NCBI RefSeq assembly: GCF_003790525.1 | Contig: NZ_CP033635.1 | Reading direction: 5' to 3' (one strand) | Length of the DNA stretch: 64,000 nucleotides | Source of the DNA: Escherichia coli | GTDB lineage: Bacteria > Pseudomonadota > Gammaproteobacteria > Enterobacterales > Enterobacteriaceae | Made by a program: the position numbers and the translations under genes | Notes under the pieces: generated by a model | The model's input: only the letters and a program-made list of their open reading frames with translations | Told to the model about the DNA's origin: nothing | Database searches by the model: none | Shown: positions 41,643-48,218 of the stretch, piece after piece | How positions within the stretch are numbered: position 1 is the first letter of the stretch | How the letters are laid out: each line of letters begins with the position of its first letter

Positions 41643-42608
41643 ATGAGAACCGTTAAGGTATTTGAGGAGGCCTGGCCCTTACATACCCCGTTTGTGATTG
41701 CTCGGGGAAGTCGCAGTGAAGCGCGCGTGGTGGTGGTTGAACTGGAAGAAGAAGGTATTAAAGGCACCGGTGAATGCACGCCGTATCCGCGTTATGGAGA
41801 AAGTGATGCCTCGGTAATGGCGCAAATTATGAGCGTCGTGCCGCAATTAGAGAAAGGGCTGACACGGGAGGAGTTGCAAAAAATCCTCCCTGCCGGCGCA
41901 GCACGTAATGCGCTGGATTGTGCATTGTGGGATCTGGCGGCGCGAAAACAGCAGCAATCGCTGGCTGCTTTGATCGGCATAACGCTTCCCGAGACAGTCA
42001 CCACGGCACAGACGATAGTCATCGGTACGCCTGATCAGATGGCCAATAGTGCATCAACACTCTGGCAGGCAGGCGCGAAATTACTGAAAGTGAAGCTGGA
42101 TAACCATCTTATCAGTGAGCGGATGGTGGCAATTCGCACCGCTGTGCCCGATGCGACGCTGATCGTTGATGCAAATGAATCCTGGCGTGCAGAAGGGTTG
42201 GCGGCGCGTTGCCAGCTATTGGCAGATTTAGGCGTTGCGATGCTTGAACAACCGCTTTCTGCGCAGGACGATGCGGCGCTGGAGAATTTTATTCATCCGT
42301 TACCGATTTGTGCTGATGAAAGTTGTCATACTCGTAGCAATCTGAAGGCGCTGAAAGGGCGCTATGAGATGGTTAACATTAAGCTTGATAAAACCGGTGG
42401 TCTGACGGAAGCGCTGGCGCTGGCGACTGAAGCGCGTGCACAAGGTTTTCGTCTGATGCTGGGCTGCATGTTGTGTACCTCTCGTGCCATTAGCGCCGCT
42501 TTACCGCTGGTGCCGCAGGTCAGTTTCGCCGATCTTGACGGACCGACCTGGCTGGCGGTAGATGTGGAACCGGCGCTTCAGTTCACGACGGGCGAATTGC
42601 ATCTTTAG
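41643..42608 (+). CDS. ycjG: L-Ala-D/L-Glu epimerase YcjG (enolase superfamily)
   Basis: Start set at MRTVKVFEE (321 aa). Confidence 0.88.
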   Translation: MRTVKVFEEAWPLHTPFVIARGSRSEARVVVVELEEEGIKGTGECTPYPRYGESDASVMAQIMSVVPQLEKGLTREELQKILPAGAARNALDCALWDLAARKQQQSLAALIGITLPETVTTAQTIVIGTPDQMANSASTLWQAGAKLLKVKLDNHLISERMVAIRTAVPDATLIVDANESWRAEGLAARCQLLADLGVAMLEQPLSAQDDAALENFIHPLPICADESCHTRSNLKALKGRYEMVNIKLDKTGGLTEALALATEARAQGFRLMLGCMLCTSRAISAALPLVPQVSFADLDGPTWLAVDVEPALQFTTGELHL

Positions 42609-43311
42609 GATGCCAGCGCAGCAAGTTTGCCATCGCAAAGAGATATTTTTCGCTGGCTTCGTCGGAGGAGATGGGTGGAAACTCTGCGGTGATGCAATGC
42701 AAGTTGAGATCTGCACACCAACTGCCGAAAGAGCCAGGTGTTTCATAACCGACGCTGGTTACCAGAGGCAATTCAAACGCCTGGGCCAGCCATTCACCTA
42801 ATTCGCTGTGTCTGGGATCTTCAATACAGGCCAGCGGATCGTGGAATGAGACCACCCAGGCAGGTTGAATGCGGTGTATAAGTTGGCACAGCGCCTGGGT
42901 TTCAGGTTCGGAGCCAGGTTTGCCACCTGTCAGTAAAACGACATCACGTTCTTCAGCGGCGCTGTTCCAGCGATAAACTGTTTCACCTTCCTTCCAGTTC
43001 GCTGCCGGAAAGTTTCGGTTTAAATCCACACCATTAGCATTGGCCCGTAACCCTAACTGGCAGCCGTCAGGATTCACACACAGCACCACATGATGGCGGC
43101 GCAAAGACGGTGTCAAAGTCCGCAGAGCACAGGAGAGCGTGACGATCGAAGAGTTTTCATCACCGTGAGTGCCAGCCAGAATCAAACCACTTTCGTGACT
43201 GGCTGCAGGGGCCGGAAACCAGATTAACGGCGCGCCCAATAATGAACGTCCGTAATGTTCTGTACCGGGCGGAAATGCGCCGCGTTCGGCGCGTGGGCGA
43301 GTTACGGTCAT
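42583..43311 (-). CDS. mpaA: Murein tripeptide amidase MpaA (M14 zinc carboxypeptidase-like)
   Basis: Start set at MTVTRPRAERG (242 aa); 3' end overlaps convergent ycjG by 26 nt. Confidence 0.85.
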   Translation of the reverse strand: MTVTRPRAERGAFPPGTEHYGRSLLGAPLIWFPAPAASHESGLILAGTHGDENSSIVTLSCALRTLTPSLRRHHVVLCVNPDGCQLGLRANANGVDLNRNFPAANWKEGETVYRWNSAAEERDVVLLTGGKPGSEPETQALCQLIHRIQPAWVVSFHDPLACIEDPRHSELGEWLAQAFELPLVTSVGYETPGSFGSWCADLNLHCITAEFPPISSDEASEKYLFAMANLLRWHPKDAIRPS

Positions 43312-43406
43312 GATCGTCTCTGGTTCAGGAAGTATTACAGGCAGTGTTGTGCAAATTTTGCGGATTATCAAATCCTTTTCTTCAACGCTATGTTATCGAT
43401 CTTGTA

Positions 43407-43431
43407 TCACTTTTTTGATGGAAGTTGTTTG
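43407..43431. promoter_or_regulatory. 25-bp motif, copy 1, upstream of mpaA
   Basis: TCACTTTTTTGATGGAAGTTGTTTG, identical to 46518-46542. Confidence 0.5.
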
Positions 43432-43557
43432 TATTTTCATTGATGTGCAGATATTAGAATTGTCGTAATGTTATATACATGGCGTATTTTATTCTTACTG
43501 GTTCTACACATGTTAATCGCATCTGATTGATCAGTTCACCTTAATAAGTTTAATAAA

Positions 43558-43582
43558 TCGTACTGCACATAGTACAGTACGA
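43558..43582 (-). terminator. Hairpin 3' of ymjC-like gene (probable operon terminator)
   Basis: 8-bp arms TCGTACTG/CAGTACGA with 9-nt loop, about 20 bp after the stop, followed on the minus strand by an A/U-rich tract. Confidence 0.4.
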
Positions 43583-43601
43583 TGGTAGCTATATAATTGA
43601 T

Positions 43602-44240
43602 TTACATGAAGAAGGGCTTATCACCATCAGTCCCGGGTTGATTGATGCCTATATTCTCACCAATGTGTTTCTCAGGTTTATCGATGATATCTGTGATTAA
43701 TGCTGCGACACTCTTACGTGATACGATCGTACCTTTGAATGGTTCATTGCGTGAGGTAAGCTCATAATCAATAATATCTTCATCAGTCAGCCAGGCAGGG
43801 CGAAGAATTGTATATTCCAGTCCAGAAGCCTCAATTGCATCCGCAGCCCTGCGGAATGGTTTTAGGGGTTCACCAATAACTGCATTATTCCATTCGCCAA
43901 ATTTTCCTGGAACTTCATCATAAATACCGAGGGAAAGAACAAAGATCAGACGTTTAACATCACAGGCTTTCATCGCAGCGATCACTGAATTTGCCTGAAT
44001 ATCTAAATCTTCCCCCGTAAGGTTGGCATACACAACATCCTGTCCCTGCATGGCCTGCTTCAGTGCTGCATGATTCAGTACATCCCCCATAATAATCTTG
44101 CTATTAGTTGGATAGGGTTTGTGGATTTTTGCTGGCTGACGGGCAAATAAAGTTTGTTTAATGGTTTGTTTATCTGCCAGTTGATTAATCACATGGCGGG
44201 CTATCTGACCGCCAGCACCAAGAATCAGTATATTTTTCAT
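43602..44240 (-). CDS. NAD(P)-binding NmrA/SDR-like protein (ymjC-like), intact
   Basis: 212-aa ORF with Rossmann motif ILGAGGQIA. Confidence 0.75.
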   Translation of the reverse strand: MKNILILGAGGQIARHVINQLADKQTIKQTLFARQPAKIHKPYPTNSKIIMGDVLNHAALKQAMQGQDVVYANLTGEDLDIQANSVIAAMKACDVKRLIFVLSLGIYDEVPGKFGEWNNAVIGEPLKPFRRAADAIEASGLEYTILRPAWLTDEDIIDYELTSRNEPFKGTIVSRKSVAALITDIIDKPEKHIGENIGINQPGTDGDKPFFM

Positions 44241-44311
44241 GAAACTTTTCCCAGATTATTGGCAGCAATATGCCAGGCCATATCACTATTACGGATTTGA
44301 ATATGTTTCAT
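44237..44311 (-). CDS. Candidate 24-codon bridging ORF between ycjY and ymjC-like gene
   Basis: ATG overlaps ycjY stop (TAATG); its TGA overlaps the ymjC-like ATG (ATGA); peptide MKHIQIRNSDMAWHIAANNLGKVS. Sequence-only inference. Confidence 0.3.
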   Translation of the reverse strand: MKHIQIRNSDMAWHIAANNLGKVS

Positions 44312-45231
44312 TACAGAGTTTCCTCAAAGAACGGAGCTAATACTGAAATTGCTTCAGCCACATAGACTTTGCCGTCATAAAGATCCATATGGTTTGCGCC
44401 TTCAACAATGTGATAGCGTTTATCCTTGCTTGATGCTCGATCGTACAGGTCGTCACTCATCCATTTGCTCCCAGCCTGGCTGCCCGCCACAATCTGTATC
44501 GGCTGAGTCAGGTACACTTCCGCCATATGGTAAGCATCATAGGTAATAATCTGGTTAAGGCTGCGCAAAGTAGCGTAACCCGGTGCTGTTGGATACTGCG
44601 CGCGAGGGGTGTGGTAATACTCCCAGGCCTGACGCAGTTCTTCGTTCGGCGCATCGGACTCCTTCATTGGTGCCAGTGGCATAGTGGCGTATTCTCCGCT
44701 GCTAATATCGCTGGTTCGGGCGTCTGAACCCGCGTCAACGTATGGTAGGGCATCAATAGATTTCACATTGTTTTCCCAACCATTACGGAACATCGAACCA
44801 ATATTGACCGCACTAACAGTACCGATGGCCTTGATGCGGCGATCCTGAATTGCAGCATTGGCTGTATATCCTGCTCCGGCACAAATTCCCATCGCACCAA
44901 TTCGGGTATTGTCGACATAAGAAAGCGTTGTCAGGTAATCAATCACGGCACTGACGTCTTCAGTACGAATGTATGGGTTTTCTAACTGACGCGGCTCGCC
45001 GCCGCTTTCACCTTGATAAGATGCGTCATAAGCAATAGTGACAAATCCCTTTTCCGCCAGTTTTTCGGCATAGGTTCCGGCCGTTTGCTCTTTAACGCCC
45101 CCACCTGGGTGAGATACCACAATTACCGGATACTGACGGGTTTCATCAAATTTTGGAGGGAAATAGATCACTGCAGACAAAGAGATGGTTGGATTATTGC
45201 TGTTAGTGAAGCTGACTTTATTATTCATCAT
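44311..45231 (-). CDS. ycjY: Alpha/beta-hydrolase YcjY
   Basis: Start set at MMNNKVSF (306 aa) with AGGAA upstream; nucleophile elbow GICAG. Confidence 0.82.
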   Translation of the reverse strand: MMNNKVSFTNSNNPTISLSAVIYFPPKFDETRQYPVIVVSHPGGGVKEQTAGTYAEKLAEKGFVTIAYDASYQGESGGEPRQLENPYIRTEDVSAVIDYLTTLSYVDNTRIGAMGICAGAGYTANAAIQDRRIKAIGTVSAVNIGSMFRNGWENNVKSIDALPYVDAGSDARTSDISSGEYATMPLAPMKESDAPNEELRQAWEYYHTPRAQYPTAPGYATLRSLNQIITYDAYHMAEVYLTQPIQIVAGSQAGSKWMSDDLYDRASSKDKRYHIVEGANHMDLYDGKVYVAEAISVLAPFFEETL

Positions 45232-45301
45232 TCCGTTCCTCATGGAGTTGTCGGTTCGTTTTAACGGTTGGTGATATCACTATAGATATTGATCATTAAG
45301 T

Positions 45302-45346
45302 TGATTAGACCCAAAATCATGATTAGACCTATCATTTAAATGATTA
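45302..45346. promoter_or_regulatory. Direct TGATTA(GACC) repeats in divergent ycjY-ycjZ promoter
   Basis: TGATTAGACC at 45302 and 45320, TGATTA at 45341 (18-21 bp spacing); typical position for a LysR-type operator. Confidence 0.35.
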
Positions 45347-45368
45347 ATAGATTGTATGGAGATACTGA

Positions 45369-46268
45369 ATGAAGCGTGAAGAAATCGCTGATCTGATGGC
45401 GTTTGTCGTTGTTGCAGAGGAGCGTAGCTTCACTCGCGCAGCAGCCCGCCTGAGCATGGCGCAGTCAGCTTTAAGCCAGATAGTGCGCCGTATAGAAGAA
45501 CGATTGGGATTGCGGCTTCTGACGCGAACCACGCGCAGCGTTGTACCCACTGAAGCGGGCGAGCATCTTTTGTCTGTTCTTGGCCCTATGTTGCATGACA
45601 TAGATTCTGCCCTGACATCCCTGAGCGATCTGCAGAACCGCCCATCCGGGACAATACGTATTACTACTGTAGAACATGCAGCAAAAACGATATTGTTACC
45701 AGCTATGCGCACATTCCTGAAATCGCATCCTGAAATTGATATTCAGCTTACCATTGATTATGGTTTGACCGATGTCGTTTCTGAACGTTTTGATGCAGGC
45801 GTCCGTCTGGGTGGGGAGATGGATAAAGATATGATCGCCATTCGAATCGGGCCAGACATACCAATGGCTATTGTTGGCTCACCGGATTATTTTTCTCGTC
45901 GAAGTGCTCCAACGTCAGTGTCACAATTAATAGATCATCAGGCAATTAATTTGTATCTTCCCACATCGGGTACAGCAAATCGCTGGAGATTAATACGCGG
46001 TGGACGTGAAGTTCGTGTTCGCATGGAAGGTCAGCTTTTACTGAATACGATAGACCTGATCATTGATGCTGCAATTGATGGGCATGGATTGGCGTATCTA
46101 CCTTATGATCAGGTTGAGCGGGCTATTAAAGAAAAAAAACTGATACGTGTTTTGGATAAATTCACACCAGATTTACCCGGTTATCACCTGTACTATCCAC
46201 ACCGTCGACATGCTGGCTCGGCATTCTCATTATTTATAGATAGGCTGAAGTATAAAGGTGCTGTTTAG
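45369..46268 (+). CDS. ycjZ: LysR-family regulator YcjZ
   Basis: 299-aa ORF with N-terminal LysR HTH (SFTRAAARLSMAQSALSQ). Confidence 0.88.
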   Translation: MKREEIADLMAFVVVAEERSFTRAAARLSMAQSALSQIVRRIEERLGLRLLTRTTRSVVPTEAGEHLLSVLGPMLHDIDSALTSLSDLQNRPSGTIRITTVEHAAKTILLPAMRTFLKSHPEIDIQLTIDYGLTDVVSERFDAGVRLGGEMDKDMIAIRIGPDIPMAIVGSPDYFSRRSAPTSVSQLIDHQAINLYLPTSGTANRWRLIRGGREVRVRMEGQLLLNTIDLIIDAAIDGHGLAYLPYDQVERAIKEKKLIRVLDKFTPDLPGYHLYYPHRRHAGSAFSLFIDRLKYKGAV

Positions 46269-46517
46269 CACTACTTGCTGATACATTAATTTAATTCTTC
46301 TCTTAACGTATTCTCAGTTCCTTTCAACGTTTTGGTTATTTTTTATTCTTCGCACAATGGCGACAGATGCTGATTATGATACCGAAAACGGGTTTGAACG
46401 TGCGAAGCCCGAACGTAGTGTTCGGAGTTCTATGTGCTTTACCGCATTTTGGAGACTATTATTTACACTAAATCTGATTTGATATATTGATACTTAAAAC
46501 ATTTGATGCTTCCTTTG

Positions 46518-46542
46518 TCACTTTTTTGATGGAAGTTGTTTG
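46518..46542. promoter_or_regulatory. 25-bp motif, copy 2, upstream of mppA
   Basis: TCACTTTTTTGATGGAAGTTGTTTG, 63-87 bp upstream of mppA ATG. Confidence 0.5.
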
Positions 46543-46604
46543 CATTTCTTTAAGGCGAAACAAATAATTACGCATCAATTTTAATGTCGGTTAGAGGGAA
46601 ACTT

Positions 46605-48218
46605 ATGAAGCACTCTGTTTCAGTCACGTGTTGTGTGCTGTTGGTCAGCAGCATTTCTCTTTCGTATGCTGCTGAAGTTCCGAGCGGCACAGTACTGGCA
46701 GAGAAGCAGGAGCTGGTGCGCCACATTAAAGATGAGCCAGCGTCGCTGGATCCCGCTAAAGCCGTGGGCCTGCCGGAGATTCAGGTCATTCGCGATCTGT
46801 TTGAAGGACTGGTGAATCAGAACGAGAAAGGGGAGATTGTCCCCGGCGTTGCGACTCAGTGGAAAAGTAATGACAGCCGTATCTGGACTTTTACCCTGCG
46901 CGATAACGCAAAATGGGCGGATGGCACACCGGTAACGGCGCAAGATTTTGTCTACAGCTGGCAACGTCTGGTGGACCCGAAAACGCTATCGCCATTTGCA
47001 TGGTTTGCCGCGCTGGCGGGAATCAACAACGCACAGGCGATTATTGATGGTAAAGCCACGCCTGACCAGCTTGGCGTCACCGCAGTTGATGCCCATACTT
47101 TGAAAATCCAGCTTGATAAACCATTGCCGTGGTTTGTGAATTTAACCGCTAACTTTGCCTTCTTCCCGGTGCAAAAAGCCAACGTAGAAAGCAGTAAAGA
47201 GTGGACGAAACCCGGAAATCTGATCGGCAATGGCGCTTATGTTCTTAAAGAGCGCGTAGTCAATGAAAAACTGGTCGTAGTGCCGAATACCCATTATTGG
47301 GATAACGCCAAAACGGTACTGCAAAAAGTGACCTTCCTGCCAATTAATCAGGAATCCGCAGCCACTAAGCGTTATCTCGCGGGGGATATTGATATCACCG
47401 AATCCTTCCCGAAAAATATGTATCAGAAGTTGTTGAAGGATATTCCGGGGCAGGTTTATACGCCGCCGCAGCTCGGGACCTATTATTATGCGTTTAACAC
47501 GCAAAAAGGGCCGACGGCAGATCAGCGCGTTCGCCTGGCATTAAGTATGACGATAGATCGCCGCCTGATGACCGAAAAAGTGTTGGGGACGGGCGAAAAG
47601 CCAGCGTGGCATTTTACACCAGATGTTACCGCGGGATTTACGCCGGAACCTTCGCCGTTTGAACAAATGAGTCAGGAAGAACTGAATGCGCAGGCAAAAA
47701 CTTTGTTGAGCGCAGCTGGTTATGGTCCGCAAAAACCGCTGAAGTTGACGCTTTTGTATAACACTTCAGAAAACCATCAAAAAATTGCGATTGCTGTAGC
47801 ATCGATGTGGAAAAAGAACCTGGGCGTAGATGTTAAATTGCAAAACCAGGAATGGAAAACCTATATCGATAGCCGTAATACCGGCAATTTTGATGTTATC
47901 CGCGCCTCGTGGGTAGGGGATTATAATGACCCCTCCACTTTCCTGACATTATTAACGTCAACGCATTCCGGGAATATTTCACGCTTTAACAATCCGGCAT
48001 ATGACAAAGTTCTGGCCCAGGCATCGACGGAAAATACCGTTAAAGCGCGTAATGCCGATTACAACGCGGCAGAAAAAATCCTCATGGAGCAAGCACCGAT
48101 TGCACCAATTTATCAATATACCAATGGACGATTAATCAAGCCGTGGCTGAAAGGTTATCCCATTAATAACCCTGAAGATGTGGCGTACAGTCGGACTATG
48201 TATATTGTGAAGCATTGA
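46605..48218 (+). CDS. mppA: Periplasmic murein tripeptide-binding protein MppA
   Basis: Start set at MKHSVSVT (537 aa) with GAGGGAA RBS; signal peptide; OppA-like. Confidence 0.9.
   Translation: MKHSVSVTCCVLLVSSISLSYAAEVPSGTVLAEKQELVRHIKDEPASLDPAKAVGLPEIQVIRDLFEGLVNQNEKGEIVPGVATQWKSNDSRIWTFTLRDNAKWADGTPVTAQDFVYSWQRLVDPKTLSPFAWFAALAGINNAQAIIDGKATPDQLGVTAVDAHTLKIQLDKPLPWFVNLTANFAFFPVQKANVESSKEWTKPGNLIGNGAYVLKERVVNEKLVVVPNTHYWDNAKTVLQKVTFLPINQESAATKRYLAGDIDITESFPKNMYQKLLKDIPGQVYTPPQLGTYYYAFNTQKGPTADQRVRLALSMTIDRRLMTEKVLGTGEKPAWHFTPDVTAGFTPEPSPFEQMSQEELNAQAKTLLSAAGYGPQKPLKLTLLYNTSENHQKIAIAVASMWKKNLGVDVKLQNQEWKTYIDSRNTGNFDVIRASWVGDYNDPSTFLTLLTSTHSGNISRFNNPAYDKVLAQASTENTVKARNADYNAAEKILMEQAPIAPIYQYTNGRLIKPWLKGYPINNPEDVAYSRTMYIVKH

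Follow-up and report, generated by a model that had tools for sequence, protein, structure and literature searches.

We examined a 64-kb window of the Escherichia coli genome (64,000 nt of NZ_CP033635.1; "the window" refers to this whole stretch), in which one exact 25-mer, TCACTTTTTTGATGGAAGTTGTTTG, stands both upstream of mpaA and upstream of mppA, the two murein tripeptide genes that border a block consisting of an SDR oxidoreductase gene, ycjY and the LysR-type regulator gene pgrR (ycjZ). The explanation that we hold with high confidence is that a piece of about 30 bp of the ancestral mpaA/mppA control region was duplicated when this block, a cassette, inserted there, and that the resulting repeats now mediate precise loss of the cassette, recurrently. 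Under this explanation, a horizontally acquired cassette carrying an SDR gene, one or two alpha/beta hydrolase genes including ycjY, and pgrR would have entered the locus in the E. coli lineage, duplicating about 30 bp of the divergent control region, TCACTTTTTTG-CC/AT-GGAAGTTGTTTGCATTT. The duplicated piece would have carried the −35 hexamer of mppA together with a conserved element just upstream. After insertion, mpaA would thus have retained its whole ancestral upstream sequence through the mppA −35, and mppA its core promoter and approximately 30 bp upstream, including the conserved element. Recombination or slippage between the copies would then excise the cassette precisely and restore the ancestral arrangement, and would have done so more than once.

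Two copies of one sequence bracket a gene block

The exact matches lie at 43407–43431 (copy 1) and 46518–46542 (copy 2), both on the + strand and with a spacing of 3111 bp, and ungapped similarity between the copies extends to 33 of 37 nt (43400–43436 against 46511–46547). They are the sole matches in the window, even when up to three mismatches are allowed, and chance was rejected as the cause of the pair because 100 dinucleotide-preserving shuffles gave an expectation of 0.00. Copy 1 is positioned 96–120 nt upstream of the mpaA ATG (first base 43311, minus strand) and copy 2 63–87 nt upstream of the mppA ATG (46605). A preliminary description of this DNA had reported the identical motif at two sites in the same orientation, its distances from the two starts, and the improbability of a 25/25 match arising by chance, and our window search, coordinates and shuffles bear it out on each of these points. 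The SDR–ycjY–pgrR block is bracketed exactly by the two copies (Table 1).

Table 1. Coordinates of the repeat copies, putative promoters, genes and other features of the locus within the window
Feature	Position	Strand	Basis or remark
Repeat copy 1, mpaA side	43407–43436	+	Exact core 43407–43431; 30-nt unit to 43436
Repeat copy 2, mppA side	46518–46547	+	Exact core 46518–46542; 30-nt unit to 46547
Putative mppA sigma-70 promoter, TTTGCA-18-AATAAT	46539–46568	+	Promoter scan and conservation
Putative mpaA core promoter, TTGATA-17-AACACT	43343–43371	−	Conserved block outside the repeat
mpaA, murein tripeptide amidase	42583–43311	−	RefSeq annotation
mppA, murein tripeptide binding protein	46605–48218	+	RefSeq annotation
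Inserted cassette plus its own non-coding ends	43437–46517	.	Absent in ~3% of E. coli and in ~70 other species
SDR oxidoreductase, intact form of ymjC/ymjD	43602–44240	−	Cassette
ycjY, alpha/beta hydrolase	44311–45243	−	Cassette
pgrR/ycjZ, LysR regulator	45369–46268	+	Cassette
queH-like pseudogene fragment, 75 bp	46367–46441	+	PGAP annotation; between pgrR and copy 2
Strong terminator-like hairpin just 3′ of the SDR gene	43557–43583	−	−16.2 kcal/mol, z = −3.6

Single-copy sites in E. coli and in other species

We queried 5426 complete E. coli genomes with a locus-spanning sequence, motif counts being taken over 5418 of them, and for other species we searched a single genome each for MpaA and identified the genes next to it. 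A minority of E. coli genomes contain an empty site, at which the directly divergent mpaA and mppA are separated by a 182-bp spacer that holds a single copy of the motif and no cassette. Such sites numbered 174 with a junction query and 192 with a shorter query among the 5418 genomes, or approximately 3%, and the junction between cassette and copy 2 is present in about 5240 genomes. At the first empty site that we examined, the match was exactly 3111 bp shorter than the window. Around the single copy at an empty site, the left side is the left flank of copy 1 and the right side is the right flank of copy 2. Consistent with this, copy 1 is bordered on its left by ancestral intergenic DNA that matches empty-site strains exactly and on its right by the cassette; the right flank of copy 2 is ancestral DNA that runs into the mppA promoter and is likewise identical to the empty-site sequence. 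Genomes that carry exactly one repeat and no insert, as a duplication flanking an insertion predicts, are therefore available among related genomes (L001, L002, L091–L093).

The same arrangement prevails outside the species. The genes are directly divergent in E. albertii, E. whittamii and three other non-coli Escherichia lineages, as well as in Citrobacter, Enterobacter, Klebsiella, Raoultella, Kluyvera, Lelliottia, Leclercia, Pluralibacter and others, and the spacer in approximately 70 other Enterobacteriaceae species is typically 180–200 bp long. In the 72 mpaA/mppA spacers that we aligned, the genes are directly divergent and one motif-like copy occurs at the same offset. The preliminary description had proposed conservation as a check on the motif, and this check returned a single copy in the spacers of roughly 70 cassette-free species, non-coli Escherichia among them. 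In the species sample, ycjY–pgrR was found between mpaA and mppA in only one non-coli Escherichia genome (L005, Escherichia sp. E1V33). The recurrence of the single-copy, divergent spacer across the sampled species argues that this arrangement is ancestral and that the cassette was inserted within the E. coli lineage.

Two further observations concern records from this survey. In the empty-site strain E. coli MFDS1019527 (L002 4595–6040), mppA is cut off after about 22 codons by a prophage, whose tyrosine integrase gene is immediately adjacent. Several "plasmid" records of 4.8–4.9 Mb that carry the locus (NZ_CP141089.1, NZ_CP134663.1 and NZ_OL790696.1) appear to be misfiled chromosomes.

Foreign origin of the cassette

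The gene block has the distribution of a foreign insert, being found on Klebsiella and Rhizobium plasmids and having YcjY homologues across proteobacterial classes. A full four-gene version (SDR, two hydrolases and a divergent LysR gene) is carried on Klebsiella conjugative plasmids at approximately 79% DNA identity, with homology limited to the genes themselves (window 43593–46267), and is also recognizable on a Rhizobium tropici plasmid. Homologues of YcjY at 81–87% amino-acid identity were found in Pluralibacter, Rhizobium, Mesorhizobium, Sphingobium, Agrobacterium and Burkholderia, the gene context differing in Pluralibacter, Rhizobium, Sphingobium and Burkholderia, and a unit comprising the LysR gene and two hydrolases is found in unrelated contexts in Pluralibacter and in one metagenomic genome. 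Because the YcjY homologues are unusually conserved across proteobacterial classes, these data suggest that the hydrolase/LysR unit has spread horizontally, recently and widely.

The repeats do not travel with the cassette. In the Klebsiella and Rhizobium plasmid contexts we found neither a motif-like sequence nor repeats at the flanks. The insert has non-coding ends of 170 bp on the left and 249 bp on the right, and no counterpart to them turned up in the Pluralibacter, Klebsiella-plasmid and metagenome contexts examined. Since the motif is present as a single copy in ancestral spacers and the plasmid cassettes lack it, the repeat is duplicated E. coli target sequence and not incoming DNA. 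The preliminary description had raised a duplicated promoter fragment as one of its two suggestions, and this is the one that gains support: the copies are paralogous, both deriving from one ancestral mpaA/mppA control stretch. Their identity is explained by this common descent together with low divergence within the species.

These distributions also bear on two other accounts of the pair. One holds that the cassette and its repeats were already present in the ancestor of the family and that other genera lost them time and again. Precise, repeat-mediated loss does happen within E. coli, which lends this account some appeal, but it would require independent precise losses in essentially every other sampled genus and in non-coli Escherichia. 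The cassette is moreover mobile: conjugative plasmids carry it, and it is found in alpha- and beta-proteobacteria at 81–87% protein identity, and the mpaA–mppA spacer of Salmonella enterica subsp. arizonae and diarizonae holds a different insert. We regard ancestral presence as very improbable. The second account takes the motif for what is left of a repetitive or mobile element dispersed through the genome, such as a repetitive extragenic palindrome or bacterial interspersed mosaic element (REP/BIME), an enterobacterial repetitive intergenic consensus (ERIC), a miniature inverted-repeat transposable element (MITE) or an insertion sequence (IS) end. The motif has something of this appearance, being a short, AT-rich direct repeat on either side of a variable segment, and an IS110 transposase gene adjoins the cassette on one Klebsiella plasmid. 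Against it, the motif occupies a median of two and a maximum of four places per genome across the 5418 E. coli genomes, is single copy in the ancestral spacer of cassette-free species, is absent from the plasmid cassettes, and shows neither a significant fold nor an Rfam match. Copy number and the ancestral single copy together refute this account, to which we assign next to no probability. The genome-wide search that the preliminary description had called for thus came back with two copies in the typical genome, not the scattered remnant that it had envisaged as the outcome that would undo its proposal.

The Salmonella inserts were considered as a parallel case. In arizonae (L024 3848–7000) and diarizonae (L025 3562–7000), an insert of 3.1–3.4 kb containing three small lipoprotein-like open reading frames (ORFs; 270, 217 and 191 aa) occupies the same spacer, and the conserved mppA promoter block is replaced. 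The left junction in diarizonae falls inside the motif, with TATCAACTTTCTGCCGGA joined to TACAG. A parallel duplication was rejected here, as no repeat flanks this different three-gene insert. The mpaA–mppA spacer nevertheless looks like a recurrent insertion site.

What the duplicated piece contains

Alignment of the 72 single-copy spacers allowed us to score conservation column by column across the repeat unit. The unit begins with a conserved TCA (0.99), followed by TT (0.93–0.99), a variable center and AAG (0.90–0.97), and it ends in the hexamer TTTGCA (1.0), which would serve as the −35 of a putative sigma-70 promoter for mppA. This hexamer overlaps the 3′ end of copy 2. TTTGCA and AAACAAATAAT are both invariant across the 72 species, within a near-invariant block on the mppA side that reads TTTGCA...AAACAAATAATTAC. 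The dinucleotide that is CC or AT in E. coli is unconstrained across species (0.42–0.54).

On the mpaA side, a second near-invariant block, GGCAGTGTTGTGCAAA...AATCAAAT, is shared by the 72 species and is plausibly the core promoter of mpaA, as judged from its conservation; the promoter scan, at its threshold, made no call on it. Within these blocks, GGCAGTGTTGTGCAAA and GAAACAAATAATTAC are invariant over approximately 72 species and are longer than promoter hexamers require, and both lie outside the repeat (43340–43375 and 46539–46575). They may be candidate sites for regulators of mpaA and mppA.

We also considered a structured RNA or known RNA family as the identity of the motif. The motif showed no significant folding (z-scores of −1.2, −0.25 and +0.45), and an Rfam scan of 43200–46700 returned no family at threshold, on which grounds this possibility was rejected. 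A weak match to RAGATH-10 inside pgrR (E = 0.19) was taken as chance.

Strain variation and precise loss of the cassette

The two copies are not identical in the typical strain. Most E. coli carry GCCGG followed by CATTT in copy 1 and GATGG in copy 2, and the 30-nt unit, TCACTTTTTTGCCGGAAGTTGTTTGCATTT in copy 1 and TCACTTTTTTGATGGAAGTTGTTTGCATTT in copy 2, is 28/30 identical between them. The exact 30-mer of copy 2 was found in 4932 of the 5418 complete genomes. GATGG in the copy-1 context, the state in our window, which matches E. coli SMS-3-5 at 100% identity, occurs in 104 genomes, including SMS-3-5 and O145:H28 strains, and 14 of these 104 are single-copy sites without the cassette. Perfect 25/25 identity is thus a minority state among E. 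coli. Outgroup species carry CC at the dinucleotide, and the AT of copy 2 is therefore derived. Other variants affect the T-run: some strains have seven Ts instead of six in copy 1, and the O157 copy 2 reads TTTCT. All strain variation of the repeat falls in columns that are unconstrained across species. The full identity seen in the window probably reflects shared origin plus a short conversion that gave copy 1 the sequence of copy 2, the conversion itself being inferred.

The single-copy sites of E. coli come in two types, CC (ST648 and many others) and AT (the 14 genomes above). The AT type is what one would expect if a CC copy 1 recombined with an AT copy 2 inside the first 11 nt of the repeat, 5′ of the dinucleotide. 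Ten of the 14 AT-type sites share one left-flank variant and the other four have the K-12-type variant, ATGTCATCG. In one AT-type strain, CP131_Sichuan, the MpaA and MppA protein accessions are those of the cassette-bearing strain AML002_par, and the two share the same left-flank single-nucleotide polymorphism. From these sequence relationships, the AT-type sites are secondary precise deletions that arose in more than one background. At these sites one hybrid repeat is kept, and the crossover points fall inside the repeat, as in a deletion polymorphism. Given that two recombinant types of single copy exist, the repeats mediate recurrent precise deletion.

None of the 5426 genomes contained the reciprocal product, which would be either a tandem cassette or a circle junction reading right end–repeat–left end. 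Several points count against this reconstruction. CC-type empty sites could be retained ancestral alleles instead of deletions; if they are deletions, the exchange would have fallen 3′ of the dinucleotide. A 30-bp duplication is too long for a transposase, and the cassette is without an integrase, a transposase or terminal inverted repeats. The promoter positions rest on consensus and conservation. Finally, the pattern in Escherichia sp. E1V33 implies recombination between lineages at the locus. In this non-coli genome (L005 4374–7000), the cassette is present with the internal deletion typical of K-12, both repeat copies carry CC, and the flank of copy 2 is of the outgroup type (GTTATTTG, CTTCAAGGA).

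Could the motif be an operator?

The other suggestion of the preliminary description was a shared operator. Such a site would be bound by PgrR/YcjZ or another factor at mpaA and mppA and kept identical by selection. The TCA..TT..AAG pattern next to the −35 is strongly conserved in the 72 single-copy spacers, its columns scoring 0.90–0.99 beyond the hexamer itself around a variable center. It would lie at about −59 to −36 relative to the inferred mppA promoter, a position compatible with protein binding, and both E. coli copies keep the conserved positions. An operator is also compatible with origin by duplication, and the two do not exclude one another. However, duplication fully accounts for the match between the copies, and this match lends an operator no independent support: the copies are paralogous products of one event, not independent occurrences at two promoters. 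The center of the motif varies among strains (CC or AT, seven or six Ts, TTTCT in O157 copy 2), and no further copies exist in the window or genome. The degenerate conserved pattern likewise occurs only twice in the 64-kb window, with none at ycjG.

The data give PgrR itself no support as the cognate factor. The PgrR (YcjZ) regulon was reportedly described by Shimada et al. in 2013 (Genes Cells 18:123). At this locus the motif's conserved core is older than pgrR, being present in approximately 70 species that have no pgrR there. PgrR is reported to control ycjY-ymjD-ymjC-mpaA, ycjG and ycjXF-tyrR (PMC5934670), and the list of genomic SELEX peaks includes the ycjY/ycjZ spacer and none at mppA or mpaA (PMC5934670). 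The hint in the preliminary description that the motif might be bound by YcjZ is therefore not supported. Its remark that it knew of no described regulator site matching the motif agrees with a literature search for regulator sites or promoters of mppA and mpaA, which found nothing relevant. Taken as a whole, an operator maintained by selection is an unlikely explanation of the pair, with perhaps one chance in several.

TCA..TT..AAG could be a predicted site for an ancestral factor, or an UP-like element. A more specific proposal, which we consider slightly less probable than the shared operator, is that TCA-N2-TT-N8-AAG would be an ancestral regulator site and that the insertion survived only because duplication left a working copy before both genes. 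Were this true, the repeat would be insertion scar and working duplicated operator together. A target duplication of 30 bp with no visible recombinase also hints at a non-standard route of integration.

Layout and variants of the cassette

No integrase or recombinase gene was present among the annotations or ORFs of the cassette, which comprise the SDR gene, the hydrolase gene or genes, the LysR gene and a queH fragment; a transposase gene was likewise missing from the cassette, and the insert ends bear no terminal inverted repeats. The fragment is a 75-bp piece annotated by PGAP as internal to a gene for the epoxyqueuosine reductase QueH (also at L084 4346–4420 and L089 2803–2877), with the putative translation MLIMIPKTGLNVRSPNVVFGVLCAL. 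It may be a remnant of the donor context of the cassette, to judge from the annotation.

The hairpin listed in Table 1 has a 12-bp perfect stem that follows the SDR stop codon and precedes AUUUAUU. A simple terminator scan made no call at 43557–43583. Such a terminator-like hairpin would separate transcription of the cassette from that of mpaA.

In E. coli the cassette comes in three sizes, with repeat spacings of 4008, 3111 and 2446 bp (L084, L087 O157:H7 and others; L094–L098). The longest form has two tandem alpha/beta hydrolase genes and is probably the original, because the same arrangement is found on Klebsiella plasmids and in Pluralibacter. One hydrolase gene has been lost from the cassette in SMS-3-5. 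In K-12-type strains, a 665-bp deletion that begins 6 nt past copy 1 turns the SDR gene into ymjC/ymjD; its junction joins CATTTT to ATTAGTTGG (L083 508–560 compared with window 43407–44100), and it takes out the 3′ end of the SDR gene and the terminator-like hairpin. Loss of the hairpin through this deletion may be the reason that ycjY-ymjD-ymjC-mpaA acts as one operon in K-12, and mpaA may be transcribed separately in strains with an intact SDR gene and hairpin.

Implications and comparison with known systems

Duplication upon insertion accounts for the exact repeat without a new regulatory site, and the locus offers a clean natural example of promoter-region duplication accompanying insertion of a cassette into a divergent control region. 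The ycjY–pgrR cassette, treated in the K-12 literature as belonging to the peptidoglycan-recycling locus, is a mobile add-on bordered by recombinogenic repeats and missing from approximately 3% of E. coli. The "ycjY-ymjD-ymjC-mpaA operon" and the PgrR regulon are accordingly lineage-specific arrangements, which affects how both are read, and the finding also matters for association signals of ymjC in pangenome studies. Its practical payoff is modest, and events of this kind are well known.

The genes involved are those of the described PgrR regulon, but the PgrR binding peak is in the ycjY/pgrR spacer and not at the repeat. Islets and islands flanked by attL/attR-type repeats share with this locus an acquired block, target-derived direct repeats, single-copy empty sites and precise loss. 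Unlike them, the block described here has no integrase, tRNA target or recognizable recombinase core, and spans only 2.4–4 kb. Excision is more plausibly the work of homologous recombination or slippage between the 30-bp repeats than of site-specific recombination. The doubling of target sequence on both sides of the insert also recalls the target-site duplications of transposons. Duplications made by transposases are typically 2–14 bp, whereas the one here is about 30 bp, with no terminal inverted repeats and no transposase. The closest resemblance in mode of loss is to deletion between short direct repeats in E. coli, by RecA-independent slippage or short homology, in which endpoints fall inside the repeats and one hybrid copy is left behind. 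Both possible hybrid types, CC and AT, are seen at this locus, as such deletion allows, the process being inferred here from natural variation among genomes. The mpaA–mppA locus thus adds a new, well-documented case to a familiar class of events, in which an insertion leaves repeats as its scar and these mediate precise loss of the insert.

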